64,000 nt of DNA from contig JBFWSN010000004.1 in the NCBI GenBank assembly GCA_050248355.1, forward strand, positions 13,530 to 77,529, read 5' to 3'. Positions 2,984 to 51,030 of the stretch are shown here, in pieces (positions within the stretch are counted from its first letter, which is position 1; each line of letters opens with the position of its first letter). The notes beneath the pieces are model-generated. The model was given only the letters and a program-made list of their open reading frames with translations, had not been told where the DNA came from and made no database searches. Source of the DNA: Dehalococcoidia bacterium. GTDB lineage: Bacteria; Chloroflexota; Dehalococcoidia; UBA2979. Both the position numbers and the translations under genes were made by a program.

Positions 2984-4375
2984 GTGCTTCGCTTCCTGGG
3001 TGCGGCCGGAAACGTCACCGGCTCACGCTTCCTCCTCGAGTCCGGCGGTCGCCGTGTGCTCGTCGAGTGCGGGCTGAACCAGGAGCGCGAGTTCGCGGGC
3101 CGCAACTGGGACCCGTTCCCCGTCGACCCGCGGTCGATCGACGCGGTCATCCTCACCCACGCCCACCTCGATCATTCCGGCTACCTGCCGAGGCTTGTCC
3201 GTGACGGCTTCTCCGGACCCGCCTGGTGCACTCCCGCCACTGCCGACCTCGCTGCGATTGTCCTCGCCGATGCCGCCCGCATCGCCGTCGAAGACGCCGA
3301 CTTCAAGCGCCGCCGTCATCAGCGCGAGGGCCGCCGCGGACCGCATCCCGAAGTGCCTCTGTACACGCCTGTGGACGCCCGGCGCGCCGTGGCCCTCCTC
3401 CGTACCGCGGGGTATCACGCGCCGTGGGAGGTCGTCCCGGGCATCCGCGCCGAGTTCCGCGACGCCGGTCACATCCTCGGCTCAGCTGTGCTGACGCTGC
3501 ATGTCACCACGCCGGCCGGCGAGCGCGTCATCACGTTCTCCGGCGACCTCGGGCGTGGCGCGAACCCGATGCTTCGCGACCCCGAGCCGCCGCCGAGGTC
3601 CGACTACCTCGTCGTCGAGTCCACGTACGGCGACCGTGAGCACCCGGACGAGGATGTCGCCTCCCAGCTCGCCGATGTTATCAACGCCGCCGCCGAGGCG
3701 CGCGGGAACGTCGTCATCCCCGCCTTCGCCATCGGGCGGACCCAGGACGTGTTGTTTCACCTTCGCCATCTCCTGCGGGATCGCCGCATCCCGCGCCTGC
3801 TCGTCTTCGTCGACAGTCCCATGGCCACGTCTGTCACCCAGCTCCATCGCCGGCACCTGGAGGCGCTGGCACCCGCCTTCGCTCAGGAGTTCCGAGGCCG
3901 CAGCTCCCCGTTCGAATTTCCCGGCCTGACCTACATCCGCTCCGTCGAGGCGTCGAAGGCGATCAACCGCGTGGCGGGCACGGCCGTCATCATCGCGGGC
4001 GCCGGCATGTGTAACGGCGGCCGTGTCAAGCACCACCTCGCTGCGAACATCACAAGGCCCGAGAGCACCATCCTTTTCGTTGGCTACCAGGCCCACGGCA
4101 CGCTTGGCCGTCGCATCGTCGATGGCGACGACCCCGTCCGCATCCTGGGGCAGGAGTGGCCCGTCCGCGCGCGGGTCGCCAGCATCGAAGGCTTCTCCGC
4201 CCACGCCGGCAGGCGCGAGCTGCTGCGCTGGGTGCAGTCGGCCCCTGCGCCGGCGCCGCGCGTGCTGGTGGTCCATGGCGAGGACGCGGCATCCGCGGCG
4301 CTCGCGGCCGCGCTCCGAAGGCGGCGCGTCAAGGCGTCCGTCCCCGCGTACGGTGAGCGCGTCACGCTCGCCTGA
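2984..4375 (+). CDS. MBL-fold metallo-hydrolase, RNA-processing beta-CASP / RNase J-like
   Basis: The metallo-beta-lactamase motif HAHLDHSG is followed by a beta-CASP region and the C-terminal …GFSAHAGRREL motif. Confidence 0.8.
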   Translation: MLRFLGAAGNVTGSRFLLESGGRRVLVECGLNQEREFAGRNWDPFPVDPRSIDAVILTHAHLDHSGYLPRLVRDGFSGPAWCTPATADLAAIVLADAARIAVEDADFKRRRHQREGRRGPHPEVPLYTPVDARRAVALLRTAGYHAPWEVVPGIRAEFRDAGHILGSAVLTLHVTTPAGERVITFSGDLGRGANPMLRDPEPPPRSDYLVVESTYGDREHPDEDVASQLADVINAAAEARGNVVIPAFAIGRTQDVLFHLRHLLRDRRIPRLLVFVDSPMATSVTQLHRRHLEALAPAFAQEFRGRSSPFEFPGLTYIRSVEASKAINRVAGTAVIIAGAGMCNGGRVKHHLAANITRPESTILFVGYQAHGTLGRRIVDGDDPVRILGQEWPVRARVASIEGFSAHAGRRELLRWVQSAPAPAPRVLVVHGEDAASAALAAALRRRRVKASVPAYGERVTLA

Positions 4376-4853
4376 CCCACCCGTCCCCTGAGAGGCGCGG
4401 GCGGCCTCATTCGTCCCGGTGAGCCGTCCATCGTGTCGACGAGGTGTCGGCTGCTGCGCCGCGTTCGCGACTACCACGGCCGATCCTGGCACACGGATCG
4501 GGCCGCAGAGGCGAGCGGACGGATGTTCTCGCGCGTGTGGCCCTGACCGAGGCGGCTCCTCGCCAGTTGCGAGCGAGATGCAACGGACGCGACTCCTCCC
4601 TGACGGACATGCGAGTGCCCCGTTCGTAGTTTGGCACTCGGCGTCCGCCGTCGCGCCTCCGTCGCGCGGCGACGCCACAGCCGCCATCCGGCCTGCAAGG
4701 AGGAGCCGTGCACCGCCGCCCGCCAGTTCGCCATCGATGGGCGGGCCCCACCGAGGCCGCCCCGGTGGTCGCAGAGATGTTGCGGACGAGCAACGCTGCT
4801 TCTGCGACCTCCCCTTTGCGCGACCGGCGAGCGGTGCGCCGCGCGGCGCGTTC

Positions 4854-5913
4854 ATGACCTGGCGCGTCGATCTCGCCCGCATCCTGCTCGTCCGGCTGGA
4901 CAACCTGGGTGACGTGGTATTGCTCGCTCCGGCGGTCGCGGCCGTGCGCTCTCGCTATCCGCGCGCCCGGCTCACCCTGCTGGCCTCGCCCGGTGGGGCG
5001 GGTGCGGCGCCCCTGCTTCCCGGCATCGACGAGGTCATCGCGCACCGGCCGGTCTGGCAGGAGCTCACGCCGGGTCGCGAGTCCGCGCCGCCGGAGCACG
5101 CCTTGATCGAGGATCTCCGTGCCCGTCAGTTCGACGCAGCTGTCGTCTTCACCTCGTTCGCGCAGTCAGCGCTCCCCGCGGCGTTCGTGTGTTTTCTCGC
5201 AGGCATCCCGCTCCGCGCCGGGTACGGCGACCGCTTCGCCGGCCGCGTCCTGACAGACGAGGTCGTACCGCCGTCGGCCCCGTTGCACGAGGCCGCAGCT
5301 GGTTCAAGCCATTGGCATCAGTCCGTCCGAGCGCGCGCTGCGCATCGAAGTGCCCGATGCCGCACAGGCGGCGGCCGATGCCGCCCTGGCCTCGCTTTGC
5401 ATGAGTAGACCGTTCGTGCTGCTCGCGCCCGGCGCTTCAGCGCCTGCACGGCGGTACCCCGCCCGCCACTTCGCCGAGGTCGCCCGCGCCACCGCCGAGG
5501 CCGGCCTCAGCGTCCTCGTGACCGGGAGCCAGGGGGAGCGCGGCCTGCTGGAGTCCGTCGTCGACGGCGCCGGCCATCCCGACGCCTGCGGCATCGTCCC
5601 CGCCGACATCCCCATGCTCGCCGGGCTCGTCCGGCGGGCCGGCGCCATCATCGCGAACAACTCGCTCCCGATGCACCTCGCGGACGCCTTCCGGGTGCCG
5701 GCCGTCATCCTCTACGCCGGCACCGACCTCGAGGCGCACTGGCGTCCCCGCTTCGCCGCCGCCCGCCTCCTCTGCCGTCCTGTCGACTGTGCCCCCTGCC
5801 ACGGCATCGAGTGCGCCCACGCCCTCGAATGCCTGGATGTTCCGCCCGCCGGCGTCGTCGCGGCGCTCCACGAGCTGCTGCGCCAGGCGGCGACGCCAGC
5901 GGTGTCCGCATGA
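4854..5913 (+). pseudogene. GT9-family ADP-heptose:acceptor heptosyltransferase interrupted by a frameshift near 5295-5305
   Basis: The N-terminal part (ILLVRLDNLGDVVLLAPAV…) reads in frame 0 from the ATG at 4854. The C-terminal GT9 part (LVQAIGISPSERALRIEVPD…LLAPGASAPARRYP…NNSLPMHLADA) continues in frame +1 and ends at 5913. Comparison with the intact paralog at 10873 shows the junction lies within PLHEAAAG|LVQAIG. Confidence 0.7.
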
Positions 5914-6917
5914 TCGGAGTCGCGCGTCCCGGCAGCGGATCGATGCCCCGCGTGCTGACGTGGCACGTCCACGGCAGTTATCTGTACTACCTCTCCCGGG
6001 CCCGCTGCCAGTTCATCCTCCCGACCCGCCCCGGCCCCGCCGAGGGGTACGGCGGACGCAGCGGCGACTTCGACTGGCCCGACAACGTCATCGAGGTGCC
6101 CGCCGAAGCGGTCCGGGACATGGACTTCGACGTTGTTCTCACCCAGTCGCGTCGCAATTATCTCGAGGACCGCTTCGACCTGCTCACGGTCGACCAGCTC
6201 CGACGCCCGCTCGTGCACCTCGAGCACGACCCGCCCCGCGAGTCACCCGCCGAGACACGCCACTTCGTCGAGGACGAGCGCGCCCTCCTTGTCCACGTCA
6301 CGCCGTTCAACGCTCTGATGTGGGACAGCGGTGCCGTGCCCGCCCGTGTCATCGAGCACGGCGTGGAGGTCCCCGCCCACCTCGCCTTCCGAGGCGACCG
6401 ACCCCGCGCGATCACGGCCGTGAACAACCTCGCGCGGCGGGGACGCCGCCTCGGCCCGGACGTTTTCGACCGAGTCGCGTCCCGCGTCCCGGTCGATCTC
6501 GTGGGGATGAACGCGAAGGACCGCGACGGCATCGAGGGTCTCCGGCGGCGTGCCCTCTTCGCCCTCGAGGTGCGGTACCGCTGCTTCTTCTACCCGGTGC
6601 GCTACACGAGCCTCGGCCTCGCGGTGCTCGAGGCGATGATGCTCGGCCTGCCCGTCGTCGGCCTCGCGACCACCGAGCTGGCTACCGTCATCCAGAACGG
6701 GCGCTCGGGGTACATCGACACGGACATCGACCGCCTGACCGGGCACGTCCGTCGCCTCGTCCACAACCGCGAGGAGGCCGCGCGCCTCGGGGCGGGCGCC
6801 CGCGCCGCCGCGCTCAACCGCTTCTCCATCGAGCGGTTCGCCGACGAGTGGACGACCGTCCTGGAAGACGTCGCGAGTCGGCCGCAGCCAGGCTTGTCCA
6901 GCCGGCGCGTGGCCTGA
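5910..6917 (+). CDS. Glycosyltransferase family 1 (GT-B fold)
   Basis: The start ATG at 5910 overlaps the GT9 stop (ATGA). The C-terminal region carries the GT1 motif …YTSLGLAVLEAMMLGLPVVG…. Confidence 0.7.
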   Translation: MIGVARPGSGSMPRVLTWHVHGSYLYYLSRARCQFILPTRPGPAEGYGGRSGDFDWPDNVIEVPAEAVRDMDFDVVLTQSRRNYLEDRFDLLTVDQLRRPLVHLEHDPPRESPAETRHFVEDERALLVHVTPFNALMWDSGAVPARVIEHGVEVPAHLAFRGDRPRAITAVNNLARRGRRLGPDVFDRVASRVPVDLVGMNAKDRDGIEGLRRRALFALEVRYRCFFYPVRYTSLGLAVLEAMMLGLPVVGLATTELATVIQNGRSGYIDTDIDRLTGHVRRLVHNREEAARLGAGARAAALNRFSIERFADEWTTVLEDVASRPQPGLSSRRVA

Positions 6918-6942
6918 CGCCGCGACGGTAGGAGGAAGCCAG

Positions 6943-8823
6943 ATGTCCGTACGCACCGCGCCTCTCGCCATCGCCATCATCAGCGAACATGCGTCTCCGC
7001 TCGGCCTCGTCGGTGGCGTCGACGCTGGCGGGCAAAACGTCTACGTCGCGCGCATCGCCCGCGCGCTCGCGGCCCGCGGACACCGCGTCGATGTGTTCAC
7101 CCGCCGCGACGCGCCTGACCTGCCGCGCGTCGTCGAGGCCGACGGCTATCGCGTCTTCCACGTCGAGGCCGGTCCGGCCCGCTTCGTCCGCAAGGAGGAC
7201 TTCCTGGACCTGATGCCGGACTTCACCGAGGATGTGGCGCGGCTCGTGACCGAGCACGGCCCCTACGACCTCGTCCACGCGAACTTCTGGCTCTCTGGCG
7301 TGACGGCTGACGAGCTGAAGCGCCGCTTCGGCATCCCGTTCGCGATCACGTTCCACGCCCTGGGAAAAGTGCGGCGGCAGCACCAGGGCGCCGACGACCA
7401 GTTCCCCGACGCTCGCCTCGCGGTCGAGGCGGAACTCGTCCGCGCGGCCGACCGCATCATCGCCGAATGCCCCCAGGACGAGTTCGACCTCGTCACACTG
7501 TACGGCGCCGACCGCCGCCGGCTGATCTTGGTCCCCTGCGGCTACGACCCCGACGAGTGCGCGCCCGTCGACCGCGCCGAGGCGCGCGCGCGCCTCGGTC
7601 TCGATCCGGACGCGCCCATCGTCCTGCAGCTCGGCCGCCTAGTGCCGAGGAAGGGCGTCGATATCGTCGTCCGTGCGACCGCGATCGTCGCCGGCGAGCT
7701 GCCCGATACCCGCCTCGTGGTCGTTGGAGGCGACTCCGACGTCCCCGATCCGGAGGCGACTCCCGAGCTCGGACGCCTCTTCCAGCTTGCCCGCCAGCTC
7801 CGTATCGAGGACCGCTGCCAGTTCGTCGGGCGCCGCCCGCGGTCCGAGATCCGCCACTGGTACTCGGCCGCCGACGTCTTCGCCACGGCGCCCTGGTACG
7901 AGCCGTTCGGCATCACCCCCGTCGAGGCGATGGCATGCGGCACGCCCGTCGTCGGCACCCGTGTCGGCGGCATCCAGTACACCGTCGATCACGAGGGCAC
8001 CGGCCTGCTCGTCCCGCCGCACGACGAGTTCGCGTTCGCTCAGGCCCTGGGCCGCATCCTCGCCGACCGCGGGCTGCGCGACCGTCTCGCCGCGGGCGGG
8101 CGCGAGCGCGTCGCCCGGTTGTTCACGTGGGACCGCGTGGCCCGCGACCTCGAGTCGACGTTCCTCGCCATGGTGGCGCACCGTCCCGGCGCGCCGCCGG
8201 CGCGGCCCGCTGGTTCCCGCGCAGTCGACGCCGGCTTCGATGCCCTGATCGAGACACTGACCAGGGGCCGCCGCGAGCTCGCTCGTGAGGTCAGGGCCGC
8301 GGCGGATGTCGTCACCGCCGGCCTGGCCGAGGGCAGCAAGCTGCTGCTGTGCGGGAACGGAGGCAGCGCCTCGGACGCCGTCCACCTCGCGGGCGAGCTC
8401 GTCGGGCGCTACCGCTCCCCCGACCGCCCGGCCCTCCCTGCCGTCGTCCTGGGCGGCGACCTCGCCTCGCTTACGGCGTGGGCGAACGACGTCTCGTACG
8501 AGTCGGCCTTCGCCCGCCAGGTCGAGGCGTTCGGCCGTGACGGCGACGTGCTCATCGCCTTCAGCACGAGCGGCCGCTCGCCGAGCGTCGTCCAGGCATG
8601 CGAGGCCGCGCGTGCCGCCGGAATGCCGGTCGTCGCCTTTCTGGGCCGCGACGGAGGCCGCGTCGCCGCGCTCGCCGACGCCGCGGTCGTCGTGCGCTCG
8701 CACGACACGCAACGCATCCAGGAGGTGCACGGCCTCCTCCTTCACCTCCTGTGCGACCTCGTCGAGGAAGGTATGGGGTACGGCGTCGACCACGCCGAGG
8801 CTGCCGGGGCTGGCGCAGCATGA
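6943..8823 (+). CDS. gmhA: Fusion protein: N-terminal GT4 glycosyltransferase (MshA/sucrose-phosphate-synthase-like) plus C-terminal D-sedoheptulose-7-phosphate isomerase (GmhA, SIS domain)
   Basis: Residues 1-~420 form a GT4 domain (GGQNVYV…, EPFGITPVEAMACGTPVV). Residues ~430-626 carry the GmhA hallmarks LLCGNGGSASDA, ELVGRY, FSTSGRS and RIQEVH. It is a single uninterrupted ORF. Confidence 0.85.
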   Translation: MSVRTAPLAIAIISEHASPLGLVGGVDAGGQNVYVARIARALAARGHRVDVFTRRDAPDLPRVVEADGYRVFHVEAGPARFVRKEDFLDLMPDFTEDVARLVTEHGPYDLVHANFWLSGVTADELKRRFGIPFAITFHALGKVRRQHQGADDQFPDARLAVEAELVRAADRIIAECPQDEFDLVTLYGADRRRLILVPCGYDPDECAPVDRAEARARLGLDPDAPIVLQLGRLVPRKGVDIVVRATAIVAGELPDTRLVVVGGDSDVPDPEATPELGRLFQLARQLRIEDRCQFVGRRPRSEIRHWYSAADVFATAPWYEPFGITPVEAMACGTPVVGTRVGGIQYTVDHEGTGLLVPPHDEFAFAQALGRILADRGLRDRLAAGGRERVARLFTWDRVARDLESTFLAMVAHRPGAPPARPAGSRAVDAGFDALIETLTRGRRELAREVRAAADVVTAGLAEGSKLLLCGNGGSASDAVHLAGELVGRYRSPDRPALPAVVLGGDLASLTAWANDVSYESAFARQVEAFGRDGDVLIAFSTSGRSPSVVQACEAARAAGMPVVAFLGRDGGRVAALADAAVVVRSHDTQRIQEVHGLLLHLLCDLVEEGMGYGVDHAEAAGAGAA

Positions 8824-9413
8824 CCACGGCCTTCCTCGACAAGGACGGCACTCTTGTGGAGGACGTCCCGTACAACGTCGACCCCGCCCGCATCGAGCTC
8901 GTGGCAGCCGCTCCACGCGCCCTGCGTCTGCTCGGCGACGCAGGCTGCCGCATCGTCGTCGTCACCAACCAGTCTGGCGTCGCCCGCGGGCTCTTCCCCG
9001 AGTCCGCGCTCGAGGCAGTCCGGGAGCGCCTCTCATTGCTGCTCGCCTTACATGGCGCGCGCCTCGATGGCTTCTACTATTGCCCGCATCTCCCGCACGC
9101 CCCCGTCGCGAGGTACGCGCGTGTCTGCCCGTGCCGCAAGCCCGCCGATGGCATGCTCCGCGCCGCCGCCTCCGACCTCTCCATCGACCTGGCGGACGCA
9201 TGGCTCATCGGTGACATCCTCGACGACATCGAGGCCGGCCGCCGCGCAGGTTGCCGCACCGTGCTCGTCGACGCCGGCCACGAGACCGAATGGCACCTGA
9301 GCCCCCGCCGTGTGCCCGAGTTCACCGTCTCCGACCTCGAGCAGGCCGCCGAGACCGTACTCAGCGGGGCCCGCCGCGCTCCTGCAGCTCCCCCGCGGGG
9401 GCCTGCTCGATGA
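8820..9413 (+). CDS. gmhB: D-glycero-D-manno-heptose 1,7-bisphosphate phosphatase (GmhB, HAD family)
   Basis: The HAD motif FLDKDGTL and VVVTNQSGVARG are present, together with the Zn-binding C…CxC region (YYCPHLP…CPCRKP). The ATG at 8820 overlaps the upstream stop (ATGA). Confidence 0.85.
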   Translation: MTTAFLDKDGTLVEDVPYNVDPARIELVAAAPRALRLLGDAGCRIVVVTNQSGVARGLFPESALEAVRERLSLLLALHGARLDGFYYCPHLPHAPVARYARVCPCRKPADGMLRAAASDLSIDLADAWLIGDILDDIEAGRRAGCRTVLVDAGHETEWHLSPRRVPEFTVSDLEQAAETVLSGARRAPAAPPRGPAR

Positions 9414-10876
9414 CCGCCGACTTCACGGGCCTCCTCGATCGGATGTCGTCGCTGAGCGTCCTGGTGGTGGGTGACGCGATCCTCGACTCGTATCTCCATG
9501 GACGCAGCACACGGCTGTCCCGCGAGGCGCCGGCGCCCGTCGTCGACCTCGACGCACGCGTGGACGCCCCCGGCGGCGCCGCCAATGCTGCCGCCAGCGT
9601 GCGCGCCCTCGGCGCCCGCACCATATTGCTGTCCGCCTTTGGCTCCGACGACGGCGGCGATCGCCTCACCGCCGCCCTCGAGGGATGCGGCGTCGACGCC
9701 AACAACTCCCTGCGCATCTCGTCCCGCGCGACCCTCACCAAGCAGCGCGTCGTCGTGCCGCCGCAGGTGCTGGTGCGTCTCGATGCCGGCACGACCGCGC
9801 CCCTGGACGACCTCGCCGAGGCTGAGCTCGTCCGGCGCCTGGAGCGGCTCGTGCCGGCCGTCGATGCCATCGTCGTGTCCGACTATGGGTACGGCGTGCT
9901 CTCGGACCGCGTGATCGCCGCCCTTGCGGCGCTCCAGCGCGCCGCGCCCCGCACCCTCGTCGTCGATGCGAAGGAGCTGCCCCGCTACCGCGACGCGGGA
10001 GTCACGGCAGCGAAACCGAATTACGAGGAGGCGCGCGCGCTCCTTGGGGGCGGGCTCGATGCCGCCCTTCCGCGCATCGAGGCGGTCGTCGAGCGCCGCC
10101 TCGACCTGCTCGAACGTACGGGCGCCGAGCGCCTGGCGGTGACCGCCGATATCGACGGCGCCCTCCTCGTCGAGCGCGATGGCAGCTGGCACCGCACCTA
10201 CGCGCGCCCCGCGCCGAACAGCCGCGCCGCCGGCGCGGGCGATACCTTCGCCGCCGCGCTGACGCTCGGCCTCGCCGCGGGCGCGTCGCCGCCGGTGGCC
10301 ATGGAACTCGCCTCCGCCGCCGCTCAGGTCGTCGTCACGCGTGATGGCACGACGACGTGCTCCCTCGGTGAACTGCGCAGCGCCCTCCACGGCGGCCCCA
10401 AAGTCGTCGAGGGCGAGGACCTCGCTTCCGCCATCGCCGCTCATCGCGCCGCCGGCCGCCGCATCGTGTTCACCAACGGTTGCTTCGACATCGTCCATCG
10501 AGGCCACGTCACCTATCTCAGCCAGGCGAAGGCGGAGGGCGATGTTCTGGTCGTCGGTCTGAACTCAGACGCCAGCACCCGCCGGCTCAAGGGGCCGGGC
10601 CGCCCCGTGAACACGTTCGATGACCGCGCCCAGGTGGTCGCGGCTCTGAGCTGCGTCGACCACGTCGTGGGCTTTGAGGACGACACCCCCGAGCAGCTGC
10701 TCCGCCTGATCGCCCCCGACGTCGTGGTCAAGGGCGGCGACTATACTCGCGAGACGCTGCCGGAGGCCGCGCTCATCGAGTCGCTCGGCGGCGAGGTGCG
10801 CTTCATGCCGTACCTCGACGGTACATCGACCACGCGGCTCATCGAGCAGATCCGCGCCCACGCCGAGGCGTCGTGA
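9410..10876 (+). CDS. hldE: Bifunctional D-beta-D-heptose 7-phosphate kinase / D-beta-D-heptose 1-phosphate adenylyltransferase (HldE/RfaE)
   Basis: The N-terminal half is a pfkB-family sugar kinase. The C-terminal half is cytidylyltransferase-like (FTNGCFDIVHRGHVTYL). The ATG at 9410 overlaps the gmhB stop. Confidence 0.9.
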   Translation: MTADFTGLLDRMSSLSVLVVGDAILDSYLHGRSTRLSREAPAPVVDLDARVDAPGGAANAAASVRALGARTILLSAFGSDDGGDRLTAALEGCGVDANNSLRISSRATLTKQRVVVPPQVLVRLDAGTTAPLDDLAEAELVRRLERLVPAVDAIVVSDYGYGVLSDRVIAALAALQRAAPRTLVVDAKELPRYRDAGVTAAKPNYEEARALLGGGLDAALPRIEAVVERRLDLLERTGAERLAVTADIDGALLVERDGSWHRTYARPAPNSRAAGAGDTFAAALTLGLAAGASPPVAMELASAAAQVVVTRDGTTTCSLGELRSALHGGPKVVEGEDLASAIAAHRAAGRRIVFTNGCFDIVHRGHVTYLSQAKAEGDVLVVGLNSDASTRRLKGPGRPVNTFDDRAQVVAALSCVDHVVGFEDDTPEQLLRLIAPDVVVKGGDYTRETLPEAALIESLGGEVRFMPYLDGTSTTRLIEQIRAHAEAS

Positions 10877-11964
10877 CCCCCGCGGACTGGTCAGCGGCGC
10901 GACGGATCCTCGCCGTCCGCCTGGATGCGGCTGGCGATGTGCTGATGACCTCACCGGCGTTGCGCGCGCTCCACGACGGCGGGCCGCCAGGGACCGAGGT
11001 GACCCTGCTGACCTCGCGGGGCGGCGCGCACGCCGGCCGCCTCATCCCCGAGGTCGCCCGCGTCGTCACGTACGACGCCCCGTGGATGAAGCCGCCCGCT
11101 CCCCTCGACGCGGCGCCGCACCTCGATCTGGTCGAGCGCCTGCGCGCCGCCCGCTACGACGGCGCGGTGATCTTCACCGTGTACAGCCAGAGCACCCTCC
11201 CGGCGGCGCTGCTCTGTTTCCTCGCCGCCATTCCTCTCCGCCTCGCATACGTCCGCGAGAACCCGTACCACCTCCTTACCGACTGGGTGCCCGAGATCGA
11301 ACCCCACGAGGTCGTCCGCCACGAGGTCCGACGCCAGCTCGACCTCGTCGCCACGATCGGCCGCCGACCGCTCGACGAGCATCTCCGTCTGTCCGTCCCG
11401 GCGGAGGCGAGGCGGTGGGCAGACGCGTTCCTCGCGACGCACGGCCTCGGCACTGCGCCATGGTGTGTCCTCCACGTCGGCGCGAGCGCCCCTTCGCGGC
11501 GCTATCCACCCGAGCGCTTCGCCGCGGTGGCCCGTGCCCTGCATGGGCGCGGCTGGCGGCTCGTGTTCACGGGCGGCGAGGAGGAGCGCCCGCTCGTCGA
11601 TGCGGTGCGGGACTTCGCCGCGGTCGACTCGCTGTCGCTGTGCGGCATCCTCGACTTCCCGCGGCTGGCGGCCCTCATCGAGGCCGCCCCGTTATTGATC
11701 TCGAACAACACGGCCCCCGCGCACATCGCCGCGGCCGTCCAGACGCCCGTCGTCGACCTGTACGCGCTGACGAATCCGCAGCACACCCCGTGGCGGGTCC
11801 CCGCTCGCGTGTTGTCGCACGACGTCCCCTGTCGCAATTGCTACCGGAGCGTCTGCCCCCTCGGACACCACCTCTGCCTGGCCGGCGTGCCGCCCGAAGC
11901 GGTCGTCGACGCGGCGCTCGAGCTCGCGTCGGCTGCGGGTTCGGACGGCGCTCCCGCGTCCTAG
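10873..11964 (+). CDS. GT9-family heptosyltransferase (intact paralog)
   Basis: RILAVRLDAAGDVLMTSPALRAL…HVGASAPSRRYP…NNTAPAHIAAAV motifs are present. The GTG start overlaps the hldE stop (GTGA). Confidence 0.85.
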   Translation: MTPADWSAARRILAVRLDAAGDVLMTSPALRALHDGGPPGTEVTLLTSRGGAHAGRLIPEVARVVTYDAPWMKPPAPLDAAPHLDLVERLRAARYDGAVIFTVYSQSTLPAALLCFLAAIPLRLAYVRENPYHLLTDWVPEIEPHEVVRHEVRRQLDLVATIGRRPLDEHLRLSVPAEARRWADAFLATHGLGTAPWCVLHVGASAPSRRYPPERFAAVARALHGRGWRLVFTGGEEERPLVDAVRDFAAVDSLSLCGILDFPRLAALIEAAPLLISNNTAPAHIAAAVQTPVVDLYALTNPQHTPWRVPARVLSHDVPCRNCYRSVCPLGHHLCLAGVPPEAVVDAALELASAAGSDGAPAS

Positions 11965-11980: not shown

Positions 11981-12715
11981 TTACGGCCAGGACGTCTCGC
12001 CCATCGGCAGCACCGTCAGCTCAGGGATCACCGTGCCCGCAGGCTGCGCGAGCGCAAACGCAATCGTCCTCGCCACGCACTCGGGGTCCTGCAGCACGGC
12101 GGGGTCGAGGTCCGGGAACCGATCGAAGAGGAAGGGCGTGCGCATGCCGCCCGCGACGATCGCGGTTACCTTAACCCCGTACGCTCGCGCCTCGACGTGC
12201 AGCGCGTGGCTCAGCCCCAGCAGCCCCCACTTGCTCGCGTGGTAAGCCGCCGCGTTCGACCAGGCACGCTTCGCAGCCGTCGAGGCGACGTTGACGATGT
12301 GCCCCGAGCCTTGCTCGCGCATGACGGGCAGCACCGCTCGGCTCATCCAGAACGGTCCGTCGAGGTTCACGCCGAGGACCTGTCGCCACTCAGCCGCCGT
12401 CAGCGTCTCGGCCGCCTTCGTCACGTCGACCCCCGCGGCGTTCACGAGCGCGTCCAGACGTCCCTGCAACGCGACGGCGTCGCGCACCGCCTGCTCCGCA
12501 GCCGCCGCCGAGGACACGTCCACCTGGCTCGCCCACGCCTCCCCGCCCGCGCCCCGCACCTCCTGCGCCACCGTCTCCGCTGCGGCCTGCCGCACGTCCG
12601 CCACGATGACGCGCCAACCCTCGCTCGCCAGGAGGCGGCAGGTGGCCGCCCCGAGGCCGCTCGCGCCGCCGGTCACGAGCGCGACCCGGCGCTTCTCGCT
12701 GCTGTCAGCCTGCAT
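11981..12715 (-). CDS. SDR-family oxidoreductase
   Basis: Rossmann motif VALVTGGASGLG and the catalytic YxxxK (AAYHASKWG) are present. The start is placed at the internal ATG (MQADSSEK); an upstream alternative lies at 12796. Confidence 0.8.
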   Translation of the reverse strand: MQADSSEKRRVALVTGGASGLGAATCRLLASEGWRVIVADVRQAAAETVAQEVRGAGGEAWASQVDVSSAAAAEQAVRDAVALQGRLDALVNAAGVDVTKAAETLTAAEWRQVLGVNLDGPFWMSRAVLPVMREQGSGHIVNVASTAAKRAWSNAAAYHASKWGLLGLSHALHVEARAYGVKVTAIVAGGMRTPFLFDRFPDLDPAVLQDPECVARTIAFALAQPAGTVIPELTVLPMGETSWP

Positions 12716-12992
12716 AGCATCGCCTTCCTGAACTTGGCGGCCATCGTGGCGCGCGTATGCCAGCATCGGGGCCGATACATGGAGTCCGCGCATCACCTCG
12801 CGGCCGGGCGCTGCCGATTGGCTTCCATCTCGCCGGCTCCGCTCGACGCGGCTGAGCGTCGGCCGCCCCGAGGCGCCGGTGGCCGCGCCGTCAACCCGAA
12901 CGCCGCCCGATCACGCCTCACGAGAACAGCGTGCTCGAAACCTAACATTCGCAGCACCGCGGGAGATAGAGACATAACTGCGGGGCGGCGGG

Positions 12993-13496
12993 CTAGCTCG
13001 TCGCTGGCCGAGTGAACCCGGGGCTCACGTCCCGCAGGCTCACGAGCGCGCCGAGCGATCCGCCCCAGACGACGTGCGCGCCAATCATCAGCGCGTTCCG
13101 CCGCCACGGATGCAGGTTCGCCGGTGCAAGCAGCTCGAGGGCGGGCAGCAGTCCGAGGTAGCTCACATCCCACACCACAAGGCCGAACAGGGCGCCGTCC
13201 GCGGCCGCGATCGGCGTCCTCTTCGGCAGCGCCGCTGGCGGGCGTATCCCGTAGAGGGCGCCCGTCGCCGCCCCGTACGCGAAGTGGGCCAGGAGCGTCA
13301 CCGCCAGCGTGCGCCCCTCAGAACGGGGCAGTTCCACCCCGCTGCGCTCGCTCGCCCGCTCAGTCACCTGGCGGGGCGGCAGGGGGTACCGGTCCGCCGA
13401 CGGCAACGCCCGGTGCGCAAGCGCCATGAACAGCGTCATGGGCACGGTGGCCGCCGCCCCCGCCGCCGCTCCCCGCACCATGCCTCGTATGTTCAT
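12993..13496 (-). CDS. Hypothetical membrane protein
   Basis: 167-aa ORF with several hydrophobic segments. No recognisable motif. Confidence 0.4.
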   Translation of the reverse strand: MNIRGMVRGAAAGAAATVPMTLFMALAHRALPSADRYPLPPRQVTERASERSGVELPRSEGRTLAVTLLAHFAYGAATGALYGIRPPAALPKRTPIAAADGALFGLVVWDVSYLGLLPALELLAPANLHPWRRNALMIGAHVVWGGSLGALVSLRDVSPGFTRPATS

Positions 13497-20757: not shown

Positions 20758-21021
20758 GTGACCGAGAAGTTCGACGACATGAGCAAGCACATGGCCCGCA
20801 AGCACTCGCGTCGAGGGCTCATCCGCGCCCTCGGGGCGGGCGTCCTCGGCGCCACCGCGGCAGCCGTGCTGCCGACCGTCGCGAGCGCGGACTGGGGTGC
20901 GTTCCGCCGGGGATCGCAGCTCCGCGACACGTACGGTCCGCAGTGGTACACCGTGGACAATGGCCAGAATCAGAACGTCCTCGGACCGATCCGCTGGAAC
21001 CAGATGCGTACGGAACCGTAG
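20758..21021 (+). CDS. Small secreted peptide precursor, paralog 4
   Basis: Near-identical to paralog 3 (DWGAFRRGSQLRDTYGPQWYTVDNGQNQNVLGPIRWNQMRTEP) and carries the same leader. Confidence 0.6.
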   Translation: MTEKFDDMSKHMARKHSRRGLIRALGAGVLGATAAAVLPTVASADWGAFRRGSQLRDTYGPQWYTVDNGQNQNVLGPIRWNQMRTEP

Positions 21022-21088
21022 TTCGTCAGTGACCGACCAGGGCGGGCCCGAGACTGGCTTTCAGGGCCAGGGCGTCTCGGGCCCGCTC

Positions 21089-21877
21089 GTGTCCGTCGTC
21101 CTCACCACCCGCGATCGCCCTCATCTCTTGCCGATCGCGTTCCGCTGCTTCGAGCTCCAGAGCTACCCCAACCGCGAACTGATCGTCGTGGACGATGGTC
21201 TCGAATATCCAGCTGACGTCTCGTCACTCCCGGCCGACGCCGTCCGCGTCGTCCGCGTCCCGCCCGGAACCCCCCTCGGTGTCAAGCTGAACCACGGCGT
21301 CGATGCTGCCCGTGGCCGCCTCTGCATGAAGATGGACGACGACGACTGGTACGCCCCGGAGTACCTCGCGACATCCGTCGATGCACTCATCGAGAGCGAG
21401 CGCCGGTTCTGCCGTCCGACCCTCGTCTTCCACCTGGGCTTTCTGTTCTTCGAACTGAGGACGTGGCGCATCCACCTGTCCGTGCAGGACAACGCCCCCG
21501 GCGCGACGCTTCTCTTCGCGAAGAGCGACTGGCGCCGCCGCCCCTTCCGTCCGGTCCCCACCGACGAGGACGCCTGGTTCTACCGCGACCAGGTCCTCGC
21601 CGGCGCCCTGCCCCTCCCCATCGACTCGATCGACACGTTCGTCGCCATTCGCCATCGGGGCCATCGAGGGACGTTCGGCCACACGTGGACCTACCAGCTC
21701 GACGGCAGATCGCTGGAGGACTATCTCGCCAGGCGCCCCGTCTACACCCGCACCCCCGAGCAGATGTTCCCCGACTGGGCCCTGCGGACCTACCGCCGCA
21801 TCCACGAAGACCTCGTCGCCCAGGAGCGCGAGGAGGAGCCCGCGGCTCCGATCGATGCGACTCCGGCTCCCGCGTAG
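21089..21877 (+). CDS. Glycosyltransferase family 2 (GT-A fold)
   Basis: N-terminal VSVVLTTRDRPHLL, DxD motif (VVDDG) and acidic MDDDDWY are present. The start is taken as the GTG at 21089; the ORF is open further upstream but would then overlap peptide paralog 4. Confidence 0.65.
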   Translation: MSVVLTTRDRPHLLPIAFRCFELQSYPNRELIVVDDGLEYPADVSSLPADAVRVVRVPPGTPLGVKLNHGVDAARGRLCMKMDDDDWYAPEYLATSVDALIESERRFCRPTLVFHLGFLFFELRTWRIHLSVQDNAPGATLLFAKSDWRRRPFRPVPTDEDAWFYRDQVLAGALPLPIDSIDTFVAIRHRGHRGTFGHTWTYQLDGRSLEDYLARRPVYTRTPEQMFPDWALRTYRRIHEDLVAQEREEEPAAPIDATPAPA

Positions 21878-22649
21878 CCGGCGGCGCTACCCCGAGGAGA
21901 ACGCGCCGCCTCCGCCCCGAGTCCTCATCCTCACCCCGATGAAGGACGCGCGTCGCACGTTGCCCGTCTACTGGTCGCTCCTCCGACGCGTGACGTACCC
22001 GCGCGGCCGCATCTCGCTGGGCTTCCTCGAGAGCGACAGCTCAGACGGCACCTGGGACGAGGTGCAGGCCTGCCTTCCGGTGCTGCAGCGTGAGTTCCGG
22101 CGCGCCCTCGCCTGGAAGCGTGACTTCGGCTACCGCATCCCCCCCGGCCTCCCCCGCTGGGAGGACTCCATCCAGCTCGCCCGCCGCGCCGTCCTCGCGC
22201 GCAGCCGCAACCACCTCCTCTTCCATGCCCTCGACGACGAGGACTGGGTGCTCTGGATGGACGCCGACCTCCTCGACTACCCGCCGGACGTCATCGAGCG
22301 CCTACTCGCTGTCGGTCGCGACGTCGTCCAGCCCCACTGCGTTCTCCAGTACGGCGGGCCGACGTACGACCGGAACGCATGGGTCGATCAGGGACGCTCG
22401 CACATGGACCGTCTCCGCGATCACGACCTCGTGCGGCTCGACTCGGTCGGCGGCACCATGCTCCTCGTGAAGGCCGACCTCCACCGCGACGGGCTCATCT
22501 TCCCGCCCTTCCTCTACGGCCTCGACAACCCCCTCGTGCGACGCGGCCGAGGCGAGATCGAGACGGAGGGCCTCGGCTCGCTCGCCCACGACATGGGCAT
22601 CGAATGCTGGGGCCTCCCGAACCTGGAGGTCCTTCATCACCCCTTCTAG
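21855..22649 (+). CDS. Putative GT-A-like glycosyltransferase (Anp1/Mnn9-like domain?)
   Basis: VLILTPMKDA…ISLGFLESDSSDGT…LWMDADL gives a GT-A-like DxD/acidic pattern. The assignment is tentative. Confidence 0.45.
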   Translation: MRLRLPRSRRRYPEENAPPPPRVLILTPMKDARRTLPVYWSLLRRVTYPRGRISLGFLESDSSDGTWDEVQACLPVLQREFRRALAWKRDFGYRIPPGLPRWEDSIQLARRAVLARSRNHLLFHALDDEDWVLWMDADLLDYPPDVIERLLAVGRDVVQPHCVLQYGGPTYDRNAWVDQGRSHMDRLRDHDLVRLDSVGGTMLLVKADLHRDGLIFPPFLYGLDNPLVRRGRGEIETEGLGSLAHDMGIECWGLPNLEVLHHPF

Positions 22650-22677
22650 TTCACCGCGGGGCACGGCCCCGAGGCTG

Positions 22678-23871
22678 TTGTTCATCACCCCTGCATCCCC
22701 CGCGGCGGGGGGGAACGGCCTCGCGATGCGTGCCGGTATGTGGCTGGAGGCGCTCGCGCAGCGCTACGAGGTCGACCTGCTCGTCGTCCCGGTCTACGGT
22801 GCGGGTCGCCCGGACGCCGACGCGTTCGCGCGCCAGTACTGCCGCTCCGTTACCGTCGTGCCGCGCGAGGCGCTCACACGCGCCCTGGCTGCCGGGATGG
22901 CCGAAGCGGGCGGGCCGCTCGACGTCCTGCGCGCGTTCGAGGCGTCCATTCCCGCCTGCCTCGAGGCCGTGGACACCCTCGATCTCGACATCGACGTCAT
23001 CCACGCCTTTCGGCTCTACACCACCCCCGTCGCCCTCGCGCTCGCAGCGCGCGCCCCGCAAGCGCGCCTCCACGTCGATCTCGACGACATCGAGTCGGTC
23101 ACGCGCTCACGCATCGCTGCCATGCACCGCCTCAACGGCCGGCTCGACCCCGCTCGCGCAGAGGACGCCGAGGCGGGCCGCTTCGCCGAGGCCGAGCGCG
23201 ACCTGCTCCCTCGCTTCCAGCGCCTGTACGTCTGCTCCGACCTCGACGCCGCCCGCCTGCGCGAGCTGCTTCCCGGCCTCACTGCTGAGGTACGCGTCGT
23301 CCCGAACGCCGTCCGGCTTCCCGTGCCGCCCCCCTCCCCGCGCACGACGCACCCCTTCACGTTCCTCTTTGTCGGCACGATGGGCTACGCCCCTAACCTC
23401 GATGCCGTCCGTTGGTTCACGCGCCGCATCTGGCCGCGCGTCCACGCTCGCGCCGGTCGTCCGGTCCTGTTTCGCGTCGTCGGTCCCCCTCCCGAGACGG
23501 ACCTCTCAGCCGTCGCGCGCCTCCCCGGCGTCCGAGTGGCCGGTCCGGTGCCCGACGTAACTCCCGAGTACGGCGACGCTGACGCGGTGGTCGTCCCGCT
23601 GCGCGCCGGCGGCGGCACCCGCATCAAGGCACTCGAGGCGTTCGCGCACGGCCGCCCGGTCGTGAGCACCACTATCGGCGTCGAGGGCATCGAGGCGACT
23701 CCGGGCCGCGATCTCCTCGTCGCCGATGACCCCGATGCCTTCGCTGACGCCTGCCTCCGTCTCATCGACGACCCGGCGCTTGGCGCGGCCATCGCGACGA
23801 GCGCCGCGCGGCTCGTCACCTTGAGGTATTCACAGGACATCGTCGCCCCGCTCATCGGCGGACCGGCATGA
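22678..23871 (+). CDS. Glycosyltransferase family 4 (GT-B)
   Basis: The C-terminal region carries …PLRAGGGTRIKALEAFAHGRPVVST…. Confidence 0.75.
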   Translation: MFITPASPAAGGNGLAMRAGMWLEALAQRYEVDLLVVPVYGAGRPDADAFARQYCRSVTVVPREALTRALAAGMAEAGGPLDVLRAFEASIPACLEAVDTLDLDIDVIHAFRLYTTPVALALAARAPQARLHVDLDDIESVTRSRIAAMHRLNGRLDPARAEDAEAGRFAEAERDLLPRFQRLYVCSDLDAARLRELLPGLTAEVRVVPNAVRLPVPPPSPRTTHPFTFLFVGTMGYAPNLDAVRWFTRRIWPRVHARAGRPVLFRVVGPPPETDLSAVARLPGVRVAGPVPDVTPEYGDADAVVVPLRAGGGTRIKALEAFAHGRPVVSTTIGVEGIEATPGRDLLVADDPDAFADACLRLIDDPALGAAIATSAARLVTLRYSQDIVAPLIGGPA

Positions 23872-24996: not shown

Positions 24997-25126
24997 TCTG
25001 CCGAGTATCGTCGCCCGCGTCGTTCGAGGCCACGCGGCCTTCCGTGCGCTGCCCCCGGTGATACAGTACGTCCGCGCGTACGCACGTAATCGCTCGTGAC
25101 GCGACCACCGACGAGAGGACTTCGAC

Positions 25127-50851: not shown

Positions 50852-50862
50852 GCCGTATCAAC

Positions 50863-51005: not shown

Positions 51006-51030
51006 CGTGGAGAGGCCGAGGTTCGGATCG

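Follow-up and report, generated by a model that had tools for sequence, protein, structure and literature searches.

A conserved heptose gene cassette with a GT4::GmhA fusion in a Dehalococcoidia bacterium and its proposed cytoplasmic product

Gene content of the cassette

The DNA studied here, below called the window, is a stretch of 64 kb from a MAG. That the host is a Dehalococcoidia (Chloroflexota) bacterium is strongly supported: the window's proteins match those of an NCBI MAG bearing the label Dehalococcoidia bacterium at 100% identity. Contamination is possible in a MAG, but a chimeric contig is disfavoured because two related assemblies are syntenic with it.

Positions 4854-11964 of the forward strand code, in this order, for GT9A, GT1s, a GT4::GmhA fusion, GmhB, a bifunctional HldE and GT9B. 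The features of the region are:

4494..4853, forward strand: conserved non-coding region upstream of GT9A, ~87% identical to the related locus L038
4854..5408, forward strand: GT9A N-terminal fragment (NCBIfam heptosyltransferase I/II N-terminal matches; NCBI CDS MGE0227725.1, 184 aa)
5295..5296, forward strand: site of an 11-bp deletion in GT9A (three-way DNA alignment with L038 and L039)
5296..5913, forward strand: GT9A C-terminal fragment (Pfam Glyco_transf_9, 72.9 bits; NCBI CDS MGE0227724.1, 187 aa)
5910..6917, forward strand: GT1s, a small GT4-fold retaining-type glycosyltransferase, 335 aa (Pfam Glycos_transf_1)
6930-6935, forward strand: Shine-Dalgarno AGGAGG, 7 nt 5' of the fusion ATG (sequence reading)
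6943..8823, forward strand: GT4::GmhA fusion, 626 aa (Pfam/NCBIfam Glyco_transf_4/Glycos_transf_1 and SIS_2/GmhA)
8820..9413, forward strand: GmhB, heptose-1,7-bisphosphate 7-phosphatase (HAD-IIIA, DKDGT motif)
9410..10876, forward strand: HldE, heptose-7-P kinase (PfkB type) and heptose-1-P adenylyltransferase (PRK11316, E 6e-114)
10873..11964, forward strand: GT9B, intact GT9 glycosyltransferase, 363 aa (Pfam GT9, 108.8 bits)
11981..12715, reverse strand: classical SDR oxidoreductase, 244 aa, convergent with GT9B (Pfam adh_short)

Pfam and NCBIfam bear out the gene content and outer coordinates given in a preliminary description of this DNA. The same description had every junction overlapping. 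Read from the sequence, four of the five junctions are overlaps: ATGA at 5910-5913 (GT9A stop and GT1s start), at 8820-8823 (fusion and GmhB) and at 9410-9413 (GmhB and HldE), and GTGA at 10873-10876 (HldE and GT9B). The exception lies between GT1s and the fusion, where a 25-nt spacer carries the AGGAGG. No TM segments or signal peptides were seen in the cassette proteins.

The non-coding region in front of GT9A contains a GTTGC-N9-GCAAC palindrome around 4566-4584, and a block at about 4551-4660 is kept also in the more distant L039. Judged by this sequence conservation, the region is probably a candidate promoter or operator site. It has no match in an Rfam search, and its RNA fold z-score is -0.6.

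Disruption of GT9A

The first gene of the cassette is broken. Where the window has the 11-bp deletion, L038 carries ACCGCAACCTG in the three-way alignment. Compared with the orthologues in L038 and L039, which are intact at 356 and 355 aa, the deletion takes out a conserved D-R-N-L and shifts the frame. The homologous part of the N-terminal fragment covers 4854-5295, and the shifted frame then runs to a stop at 5408. The Pfam and NCBIfam GT9 call lies on 5254-5913; within the C-terminal fragment the earliest possible start codon is the GTG at 5350, and the GT9 alignment reveals a C-x2-C-x4-C-x5-C motif. The deletion junction is also present, 100% identical across it, in contigs L046 and L047, which are Logan assemblies of two separate sequencing runs (SRR27751816, SRR27751815).

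The dN/dS of the C-terminal fragment versus L038 is 0.16, which indicates that the loss of GT9A is recent. Further, the deletion probably uncouples the translation of GT1s. Of the two GT9 genes described earlier only one is thus intact, as the deletion splits GT9A into two NCBI CDS.

Synthesis of activated heptose

GmhB matches the NCBIfam model PRK08942 with E 1e-41, under its cut-off, and HAD-SF-IIIA over the cut-off. HldE joins a PfkB kinase domain to a cytidylyltransferase-like one; the motifs GAGD, HRGH and YLDGTSTT are present in it, and the domain II model TIGR02199 scores 198.9, exceeding its cut-off of 181.5. HldE as an STTR5 enzyme was ruled out. Together with the GmhA part of the fusion, these proteins provide the same four activities as the E. 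coli ADP-L-glycero-beta-D-manno-heptose pathway (GmhA, HldE kinase, GmhB and HldE adenylyltransferase), with motifs intact.

In contrast to the E. coli pathway, GmhA is fused to a GT4 and the HldD epimerase is absent from the cassette. Without HldD only the D-glycero-D-manno form is predicted, and not the L,D-epimer, so that the product earlier given as ADP-L/D-heptose is narrowed to one form. Of the complete pathway with two GT9s that had been proposed, GmhA, GmhB and HldE are present, while GT9A is broken and HldD is missing.

The fusion protein and its putative acceptor

Residues 1 to about 412 of the fusion form an SPS/MshA-like GT4, and residues from about 428 to 611 a sedoheptulose-7-P isomerase (SIS_2). 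The GmhA part has its catalytic motif residues H481/E485/Q593/E594/H601, and the metal and catalytic residues are invariant in 30 homologues. The closest solved relatives of the GT4 are the cyanobacterial sucrose-phosphate synthase TeSPS (PDB 6kih, E 5e-82, 41% identity) and MshA (1e-62); GmhA structures match at about 1e-44. Among the NCBIfam models MshA is the top match, at 303 bits and under its cut-off of 462.5, while the SPS model scores far under its own (110 vs 576).

Nearly all catalytic and acceptor-phosphate residues of TeSPS are kept. Taking the substrate and acceptor positions from PMC7264703, the counterparts of Q51, R105 (as K84), H158, R178, R249, R253, E331, P332 and E339 are invariant in the 30 homologues; A48 corresponds to A28 in the window fusion and is not invariant across the family. 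As in MshA, the residue matching the acceptor-phosphate Lys and the Arg are kept, but the motif reads GGQN, the TeSPS form, where MshA has GGMN. MshA (mycothiol) and BshA (bacillithiol) are likewise retaining GT4s acting on small acceptors; unlike their systems, the cassette is not accompanied by deacetylase, ligase or inositol-phosphate synthase genes.

The likeness to enzymes that glycosylate small phosphorylated acceptors indicates a soluble cytoplasmic glycoside. Further, the kept acceptor-phosphate residues suggest that a ketose or heptose phosphate is probably glycosylated: by homology and analogy, the acceptor of the GT4 domain is probably fructose-6-P, sedoheptulose-7-P or the neighbouring heptose-7-P. 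This assignment draws on the homology of one domain (~41% identity) and on the analogy with SPS/SPP logic.

GT1s, GT9B and the SDR

The Pfam match of GT1s covers only its C-terminal third, and the N-terminal domain is divergent, yet the family is strongly conserved, with a mean column identity of 59-68%. In T. elongatus the SPS gene adjoins a small sucrose-elongating GT4 (PMC9909042), the pair being known as SPS/glucosylsucrose synthase (tll1590/tll1591). The cassette resembles this pair in having a small GT4 adjacent, in its HAD phosphatases and in being cytoplasmic and soluble. It differs in that its SPS-like GT4 is fused to GmhA and lies within an NDP-heptose/GT9 cassette with an SDR. The best Foldseek matches of the GT1s AF2 model (pLDDT 89.9) are ManT, BshA, TeGSS (the sucrose-elongating GT4), TeSPS and MshA. 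They all lie near E 1e-11, as do the lipid-linked or protein-directed GT4s PglA and SdgB, so the matches do not discriminate and GT1s is not specifically nearest to TeGSS.

In GT9B the catalytic Asp of the 'GD' motif is present, as in WaaC and WaaF, and C320/C323/C328/C335 and H332 are invariant in the family alignment. Its AF2 model (pLDDT 91.3) matches 3tov, WaaF and WaaC at TM 0.67-0.80 and TibC at about 0.5. Unlike WaaC and WaaF, the cassette GT9s carry a Cys4 cluster, and both score under every NCBIfam WaaC/WaaF/WaaQ equivalog cut-off. It is strongly supported that GT9B, and GT9A where intact, have the canonical GT9 fold and would transfer the heptose of the cassette. In some cassettes elsewhere GT9B is fused to a beta-PGM-type HAD phosphatase.

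The PDB matches of the SDR are only generic. Orthologues with 55-62% identity sit inside the operon in L001-3, L010, L011, L041 and L043, in other phyla between the fusion gene and GmhB, and we therefore count the convergent gene as a member of the cassette on the basis of sequence and gene order.

Conservation of the cassette

A literature search found no paper on this cassette. We examined 11 loci from 4 phyla with a full or near-full set of genes. The cassette is syntenic in Dehalococcoidia and, at 45-60% identity, in other Chloroflexota (Chloroflexia), Deinococcus, Nannocystis and filamentous cyanobacteria of the Leptolyngbya type. The gene order elsewhere is GT9 - GT1s - GT4::GmhA - SDR - GmhB - HldE - GT9. 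The SDR is outside the run, either convergent or farther downstream, in loci of the Dehalococcoidia type (the window, L038, L039 and L045). The Ktedonobacterales loci have GT4 and GmhA unfused, yet in one cluster. The dN/dS of all cassette genes versus the sister genome is 0.06-0.27. It is strongly supported that the genes have stayed together as a set in several phyla and that purifying selection acts on them.

No conserved exporter, lipid-carrier enzyme, target-protein or aglycone gene was found among the 11 loci; nor do their gene tables hold any conserved membrane, flippase, polyprenyl-P transferase, Epimerase/HldD or lipid A/Kdo gene. The glycoprotein, S-layer glycan or secondary metabolite suggested in the preliminary description thus receives no specific support.

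Possible fates of the heptose

A non-LPS role of the cassette is well supported, as had been supposed from the start. One alternative is ordinary LPS/LOS inner-core synthesis, in which WaaC and WaaF would have their equivalents in GT9A and GT9B and the Kdo-lipid A genes would lie elsewhere in the genome. WaaF and WaaC are indeed among the best solved GT9 relatives, and many homologues carry the name 'lipopolysaccharide heptosyltransferase II' in pipeline annotation. The cassette is also found in two LPS-bearing groups, Nannocystis and cyanobacteria. Against this, all the equivalog scores are under cut-off, HldD is absent, and the genes accompanying the cassette are SPS-like and GT4 enzymes, not waa genes. 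Pfam scans of the probable coding ORFs in the 64 kb detected no lipid A or Kdo genes, confirming the earlier remark on lipid A, and no related locus has one either. Moreover, Chloroflexota are classed with the monoderms that have no LPS outer membrane (PMC10608941), and the cassette is found in Deinococcus, while the outer membrane of D. radiodurans is without LPS (PMC9388160). We regard LPS synthesis as extremely improbable.

It is unlikely, but clearly less so, that the heptose enters a cell-wall glycopolymer or glycolipid built on a lipid carrier or membrane lipid, with initiation and export genes elsewhere. GT4 and GT9 enzymes often use lipid-linked acceptors at the membrane surface, PglA and PimB' are among the structural matches of GT1s, and a second glycosyltransferase cluster lies in the window at 20.9-25.6 kb. 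The heptosyltransferases of LPS synthesis, too, are soluble or peripheral enzymes of the cytoplasm, so the lack of membrane proteins in the cassette is compatible with a lipid-anchored acceptor made elsewhere. However, in the loci examined the cassette has no conserved neighbour coding for a polyprenyl-phosphate transferase, flippase, polymerase or ABC exporter, the accessory GT2 of the cassette has no homologue in the window, and the nearest relatives of the fusion GT4 use soluble phosphorylated acceptors, with the phosphate-binding residues invariant. Slightly less probable still is O-heptosylation of proteins in the cytoplasm, as by TibC/AAH, or glycosylation of a protein of the S-layer or another part of the envelope ahead of its export. 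TibC is a precedent for ADP-heptose use outside LPS; its donor is ADP-D,D-heptose (PMC4358343), which fits the lack of HldD, and the pathway here is entirely cytoplasmic. The conserved C-lobe Cys4 cluster of GT9A and GT9B is loosely like the four-cysteine iron finger of TibC, but the spacing is C-x2-C-x4-C-x6-C versus 339/342/358/370, where TibC has a long insertion. TibC is a dodecamer with an N-terminal beta-barrel that GT9B lacks, and the GT9B model is closer to canonical GT9s (TM 0.7-0.8). Neither an autotransporter nor any other candidate substrate is kept beside the cassette in any phylum, and a phosphate-binding SPS/MshA-like GT4 and the SDR would be left without a role.

Heptose is known from other monoderms. 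The GDP-heptose S-layer glycan pathway of Aneurinibacillus is a precedent, and the septacidin and hygromycin B pathways of actinomycetes are another, as far as commentaries on them describe. These pathways use other transferases or GDP-alpha-heptose (HddA/HddC), their clusters have aglycone or S-layer glycan assembly genes alongside, unlike the cassette, and none combines GT9 enzymes with an SPS-like fusion. Tailoring of a septacidin- or hygromycin B-like secondary metabolite is very unlikely. In its favour, actinomycete natural-product clusters use ADP-heptose genes, according to the commentaries on Tang et al. 2024; GmhA adjoins a GT4 in the Streptomyces loci L014-L021, and one Deinococcus copy is on a replicon labelled plasmid by NCBI. 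But the Streptomyces loci are arranged differently, with a GT4 identity of only about 26%, and the cassette has no constant companion among aglycone, NRPS/PKS, aminotransferase, resistance or export genes. Its enzymes are 50-68% identical across phyla, unusual in specialised metabolism.

Proposed pathway

The reading that we prefer, and to which we give an even chance, is a self-contained cytoplasmic pathway that starts from a sugar-phosphate primer and leads to a soluble oligosaccharide bearing heptose, the nature of the acceptor being inferred. The GT4 domain of the fusion would glycosylate a small sugar phosphate as primer, GT1s would lengthen the primed product and the GT9s would put on heptose. 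The SDR may modify one residue of the oligosaccharide, and a HAD phosphatase would take the phosphate off. These steps would yield a soluble and possibly non-reducing oligosaccharide decorated with heptose, whose role would resemble that of a compatible solute or protectant.

In the sister genome the cassette is flanked by a sensor kinase and a response regulator, both of which the window copy lacks. With these genes gone and GT9A split, the window copy would make at most a truncated product. For the family in general, this widespread and uncharacterised cassette would, if the reading, which is about as likely to be right as wrong, holds as a whole, both make its own nucleotide-activated heptose and use it in the cytoplasm.

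Organization of the cassette

The heptose cassette consists of an operon on the forward strand (4854-11964) and a convergent SDR gene. The window has a G+C content of about 70%, and third-position G+C indicates a single coding frame for each gene between 4.85 and 11.96 kb, all on the + strand.

Genes of the heptose cassette
4854-5913, +, GT9A: GT9 glycosyltransferase, in two frames according to domain searches
5910-6917, +, GT1s: small GT4-fold glycosyltransferase, 335 aa, with a Glycos_transf_1 match confined to the C-terminal third
6943-8823, +, GT4::GmhA (the fusion): 626 aa, a complete GT4 enzyme joined to a SIS_2/GmhA domain
8820-9413, +, GmhB: HAD-IIIA phosphatase of GmhB type
9410-10876, +, HldE: bifunctional HldE
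10873-11964, +, GT9B: second GT9
11981-12715, -, SDR: classical adh_short, convergent with GT9B

The preliminary description had every junction overlapping. This applies to four of them (ATGA, ATGA, ATGA and GTGA), but GT1s and the fusion are separated by a 25-nt spacer, inside which an AGGAGG lies seven bases 5' of the fusion ATG. No signal peptide or transmembrane segment is found in the cassette proteins; their hydrophobic maxima are elements of Rossmann cores.

A non-coding block 5' of GT9A, at about 4551-4660, is conserved even in a more distant related assembly (L039, 78% identical) and contains the palindrome GTTGC-N9-GCAAC. It is possibly the operator for a response regulator that has been lost from the genome of the window. 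A riboswitch or leader RNA upstream of the cassette is rejected, as Rfam gives no match in this region and the RNA fold is no better than that of shuffled sequences. A scan for promoters and terminators gave nothing exceeding chance. Further upstream, at 2984-4375, there is a beta-CASP/MBL RNase that is kept in the sister genomes. Its best NCBIfam match is the type VII CRISPR 'Cas14' (398 bits, cut-off 800), and it also matches archaeal aCPSF1; since the 'Cas14' score is under the threshold, the gene probably encodes no more than an ordinary RNase J/CPSF-like enzyme.

Heptose nucleotide synthesis and the host of the cassette

The cassette proteins, including GT9B and the fusion, are 100% identical to MGE0227718-726.1, from a 350-kb contig of an NCBI MAG named 'Dehalococcoidia bacterium', a taxonomy that is the submitter's label. 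A sister MAG (GCA_050181135.1, L038) is syntenic with the window at about 87% DNA identity. Chloroflexota are counted with the monoderm groups that have no LPS outer membrane (PMC10608941). Across the whole 64-kb window, the probable coding ORFs have no Pfam match to lipid A, Kdo or LPS-core genes, as had been stated from the sequence for the neighborhood of the operon, and the gene tables of related cassette loci contain no Kdo or lipid A (waa/lpx/kdt) genes either.

A complete pathway to ADP-L/D-heptose had been proposed. GmhA, GmhB and HldE are indeed present with intact motifs, but the HldD 6-epimerase (extended-SDR/Epimerase) is absent from the cassette and from every related locus table. 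The GmhA domain scores 93 bits against SIS_2 and matches PDB structures of GmhA at about 1e-44; 30 homologues all share its metal and catalytic residues H481, E485, Q593, E594 and H601. GmhB has its nucleophile motif DxDxT as DKDGT at residues 7-11 and passes the HAD-SF-IIIA cut-off (109.6, cut-off 44.6). HldE matches PRK11316 at E 6e-114, passes TIGR02199 (198.9, cut-off 181.5) and contains GAGD (the GxGD of PfkB-type kinases), HRGH (HxGH) and YLDGTSTT (GxSTT). The NCBIfam equivalog cut-offs are missed by GmhA (174 vs 209), GmhB (142 vs 178), HldE (381 vs 521) and the HldE kinase domain (233 vs 345); these scores are those of divergent orthologues, or effects of a domain lying in a fusion.

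A PfkB-type HldE kinase, as opposed to the GHMP-type HddA, gives the beta-anomer and thereby ADP-linked heptose. The kinase domain of this HldE is PfkB-type and not GHMP-type, and the heptose is therefore predicted to be ADP-linked. Taken with the absence of HldD, ADP-D,D-heptose is well supported as the donor of the cassette. HldE was also considered as an NTP-promiscuous STTR5 enzyme; according to a commentary the motif (F/L)XXGRSTT marks enzymes that use CTP or UTP. This was rejected, as the motif in the window is YLDGTSTT, with T at position 5 where STTR5 has its arginine.

The GT9 enzymes

The GT9s of the window retain the catalytic Asp of the N-terminal 'GD' motif. GT9B belongs to PF01075 (108.8 bits), and its Asp, D22, is invariant. 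Its predicted structure (pLDDT 91) adopts the canonical GT9 fold. In Foldseek the model is closest to a Veillonella GT9 (3tov), followed by WaaF and WaaC, with 3tov, 1psw and 2h1h at TM 0.67-0.80. Still, GT9B is below every heptosyltransferase equivalog cut-off (II, 112.2 vs 134.6; III, 107 vs 170.2; I, 62.4 vs 185.3), and the fragments of GT9A score lower than GT9B. The label 'LPS heptosyltransferase II' is misleading for this family.

Each cassette locus has 2-5 GT9 genes, of three types that can be distinguished by alignment.

GT9 types of the cassettes
Type B: C-x2-C-x4-C-x6-C, with four Cys and one His invariant in 40 sequences
Type A/3: C-x2-C-x4-C-x5-C, the type disrupted in the window
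Short type: no Cys motif, missing from the lineage of the window

A Cys4 cluster is also found in the protein heptosyltransferases TibC and AAH (BAHT), which have an N-terminal beta-barrel, a beta-hairpin thumb, an iron finger (Cys339/342/358/370) and an adjacent autotransporter substrate. In contrast, the model of GT9B has no beta-barrel, its Cys4 spacing is different and its TM to TibC (4rap) is about 0.5; no autotransporter gene is found near the cassette. The Cys4 cluster was therefore rejected as a sign of a TibC-like enzyme, since Foldseek groups GT9B with canonical GT9s, although the resemblance remains.

Two variants of the GT9 architecture occur at other loci. Several phyla encode a separate protein of some 150 aa, here called half-GT9, which corresponds to the N-terminal (acceptor-side) domain of a GT9 without the catalytic GD motif and has no Pfam match. 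In cassettes of Deinococcus, Nannocystis and cyanobacteria it is located as follows.

Half-GT9 genes at four cassette loci
L041, 8582-9034
L043, 8518-9039
L010, 5649-6101
L002, 8416-8856

In some Chloroflexota-type cassettes GT9B is joined at its C-terminus to a beta-phosphoglucomutase-like (beta-PGM-type) HAD phosphatase, as in the proteins P0199 (locus L045, 10001-11824) and P0160; L045 additionally contains two further GT9 genes, an SDR and a GT2.

Among the top structural matches of GT9B (model md827c772eb8a), between WaaF and WaaC, is PnsB1, a chloroplast NDH subunit of plants (9grx_1, 7wff_a and 7f9o_6; TM 0.65-0.70). In PnsB1 a GT9-fold protein has been recruited to a structural role within a photosynthetic complex.

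The fusion protein, GT1s and SDR

The GT4 domain of the fusion tells the most about mechanism. Its nearest solved relative is the sucrose-phosphate synthase Tll1590 of Thermosynechococcus (TeSPS; E 5e-82, 41% identity), followed by the mycothiol glycosyltransferase MshA. Both of these enzymes glycosylate small phosphorylated acceptors. The fusion reaches the cut-off neither of TIGR02472, the NCBIfam glycosyltransferase domain of SPS (109.8, cut-off 576), nor of TIGR03449 for MshA (303.3, cut-off 462.5), and none of the mycothiol genes mshB/C/D adjoins the cassette. PMC7264703 lists the residues with which TeSPS contacts the hydroxyls of fructose, the phosphates of acceptor and UDP, and the glucose. 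Their equivalents in the fusion are Q31, K84 (for R105), H138, R158, R232, R236, E320, P321 and E328; none of these varies among 30 diverse fusion proteins, while A28, which in the window equals A48 of TeSPS, is variable in the fusion family.

In T. elongatus the SPS gene adjoins tll1591, a small GT4 that extends sucrose to glucosylsucrose (PMC9909042), and GT1s is similarly a small GT4-fold enzyme beside an SPS-like domain. Tll1591 is among the top structural matches of GT1s, but ManT, BshA, PglA and MshA are equally so, with the same E-values. The assignment of GT1s as a specific glucosylsucrose synthase orthologue was therefore reduced to a lead, as profile and fold searches give this synthase as one of many equal GT4 matches. 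For the specificity of SDR only generic SDR matches were found. A role in anti-phage defence, prompted by a Pfam 'GT4-conflict' match, was rejected, as PADLOC gives no match.

The cassette in other phyla

Searching with the fusion gives 7,974 database proteins at E <= 1e-20, the best 120 of which are all full-length GT4+SIS fusions; each of the three cassette enzymes searched has thousands of database relatives. Fusions are carried by Dehalococcoidia, Anaerolineales, Deinococcus (one copy on a replicon labelled a plasmid by NCBI), Nannocystis, an Actinomycetota MAG and others, and a genome scan adds the filamentous cyanobacteria Oculatella, Pantanalinema and Leptolyngbyaceae. In Ktedonobacterales GT4 and GmhA are separate genes, yet clustered, indicating that their association is functional and not an accident of fusion.

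The loci with fusions share the order GT9 - (half-GT9) - GT1s - GT4::GmhA - SDR - GmhB - HldE - GT9 - (GT2) - GT9, with 45-62% identity to the proteins of the window. As SDR sits within the operon at other loci, it is a member of the cassette. Recurring extra genes are PucR-type regulators, a protein of the endonuclease/exonuclease/phosphatase family and beta-PGM-type HAD phosphatases. In the tables of related loci, which are automated gene calls, none of the following is conserved: transporters, flippases, polyprenyl-phosphate transferases, HldD-type epimerases and lipid A/Kdo genes. Taken together, the cassette is well supported as a self-contained cytoplasmic module making ADP-D,D-heptose, which is transferred by dedicated GT9s, in an organism and in phyla without LPS.

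Decay of the copy in the window

Two GT9 heptosyltransferases had been described in the operon, and both are GT9 by family, but GT9A is split: its N-terminal 147 and C-terminal 206 residues are in separate frames. Alignment with the intact orthologues of L038 (356 aa) and L039 (355 aa) places a single 11-bp deletion at 5295/5296, which costs GT9A its conserved D-R-N-L. In the NCBI annotation each piece is a CDS of its own, with 184 and 187 aa. Over the deletion junction the window is matched at 100% identity by two Logan assemblies, built from the separate runs SRR27751815 and SRR27751816; the deletion is therefore a real allele, as opposed to an error of a single assembly. The dN/dS of GT9A against L038 is 0.16, within the range of neighboring genes (0.06-0.27), which indicates that the loss is recent.

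The shifted frame ends at a stop at 5408, about 500 nt ahead of the start of GT1s, where the sequence contains no Shine-Dalgarno of its own. As ribosomes would halt at 5408, the translation of GT1s is probably impaired. In contrast, the fusion has its own AGGAGG, and it and the genes coupled to it are expected to be unaffected.

Compared with L038, three blocks are missing from the window, at 4376-4493, 12830-13008 and about 14890. The one at 4376-4493 is 4.5 kb directly 5' of the cassette and encodes a PAS/GAF histidine kinase plus a response regulator. Of the two downstream, one contains a gene for a pyridine-nucleotide-disulfide oxidoreductase, following SDR, and the other an SDR+TspO pair. 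These absences, along with the GT9A deletion, suggest continuing gene loss around the cassette. The copy of the pathway in the window is degraded, having lost GT9A and the sensor pair and possibly the expression of GT1s.

Other features of the window

A second glycosyltransferase cluster is located at 20897-25489.

Genes of the second glycosyltransferase cluster
20897-21877, GT2
21855-22649, Anp1-like protein (PF03452, 164 bits)
22678-23871, GT4
23852-25489, -, GT4-like gene

PF03452 is a family of fungal Golgi mannan synthesis. The accessory GT2 of the heptose cassettes has no homologue in this cluster, and a link between the two was therefore rejected.

At 42200-46996 there is an NAD-specific glutamate dehydrogenase of the large bacterial type (1598 aa) with all ACT and helical-motif domains. 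An island of low G+C (59-63% vs about 70%) at about 50800-54163 abuts tRNA-Met(CAT) at 54089-54163 (-) and looks like a defence island integrated at a tRNA gene.

Conflict-system genes of the low-G+C island
51031-52773, -, ABC-3C ORF with the conflict-system domains DUF2326 and CTD10
52996-53925, -, ABC-3C ORF with the conflict-system domain CTD10

Possible products of the cassette

What the heptose is attached to can be approached through the partners of the pathway. If the homology of one domain is a guide, the SPS/MshA-like GT4 could prime a product on fructose-6-P, on sedoheptulose-7-P or on the heptose-7-P that the fused GmhA releases. GT1s might then lengthen the primed product, the GT9s would attach heptose and SDR could oxidise or reduce one residue. 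By analogy with the two-step schemes SPS/SPP, TPS/TPP and GPGS/GPGP, an HAD phosphatase may strip the phosphate, and the end product would be a soluble heptose-bearing oligosaccharide.

Tentatively, the cassette may make a new class of soluble, non-reducing, heptose-decorated oligosaccharide, primed on a ketose or heptose phosphate by the GmhA-fused SPS-like GT4 and heptosylated by GT9s with a Cys4 metal site. In several phyla, bacteria that live in soil or mats or are exposed to desiccation would use this oligosaccharide as a stress protectant or carbon store. We regard this as possible rather than probable. It is a speculation that a role in stress protection fits both the distribution (Deinococcus, soil and hot-spring Chloroflexota, terrestrial filamentous cyanobacteria, Nannocystis and Ktedonobacteria) and the flanking sensory regulators.

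Other destinations of the heptose have to be weighed against such an oligosaccharide. A lipid-linked wall polymer or glycolipid is unlikely: its initiation and export genes could be elsewhere in the genome, but none is conserved near the cassette. Protein heptosylation would match both the D,D-heptose donor and the Cys4 site; the lack of a substrate gene and of the BAHT architecture, and an SPS-like domain left without a role, make it quite unlikely. The conservation across phyla and the missing aglycone genes render a secondary metabolite improbable. Ordinary LPS core synthesis is very improbable, as the taxon, the carriers in Deinococcus, the sub-threshold GT9 scores and the gene context are all contrary to it.

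Discussion

It is known that heptose nucleotide synthesis is spread far past Gram-negative bacteria (PMC11573728). The authors of that survey consider the use of heptose beyond LPS and a small number of glycoproteins and antibiotics to be still open, and expect conserved gene neighbors to give hints (PMC11573728). The cassette is such a hint: a fixed set of partners, found in phyla without LPS, in which two GT4-fold enzymes and an SDR go with 2-5 GT9s per locus that fall into three types by sequence. In the full-text literature we found no paper that deals with the cassette, with GT4::GmhA fusions or with heptose in Chloroflexota, Deinococcus or cyanobacteria. Each of the parts is of a known kind, while their arrangement (an SPS-like::GmhA fusion, Cys4 GT9 subfamilies, SDR and hosts without LPS) appears to be undescribed; the copy in the window is a partly decayed member.

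Deinococcus and Nannocystis are culturable carriers that permit a genetic test of how the heptose is used. ADP-heptose is an agonist of innate immunity, and bacteria without LPS can thus be among its producers. The cassette would also broaden the acceptor range of family GT9. If the proposed oligosaccharide is indeed the product, it would give ADP-heptose and the GT9 enzymes their first physiological role in bacteria that lack LPS, and would be the first case of a GT9 acting on an acceptor that is neither lipid nor protein.
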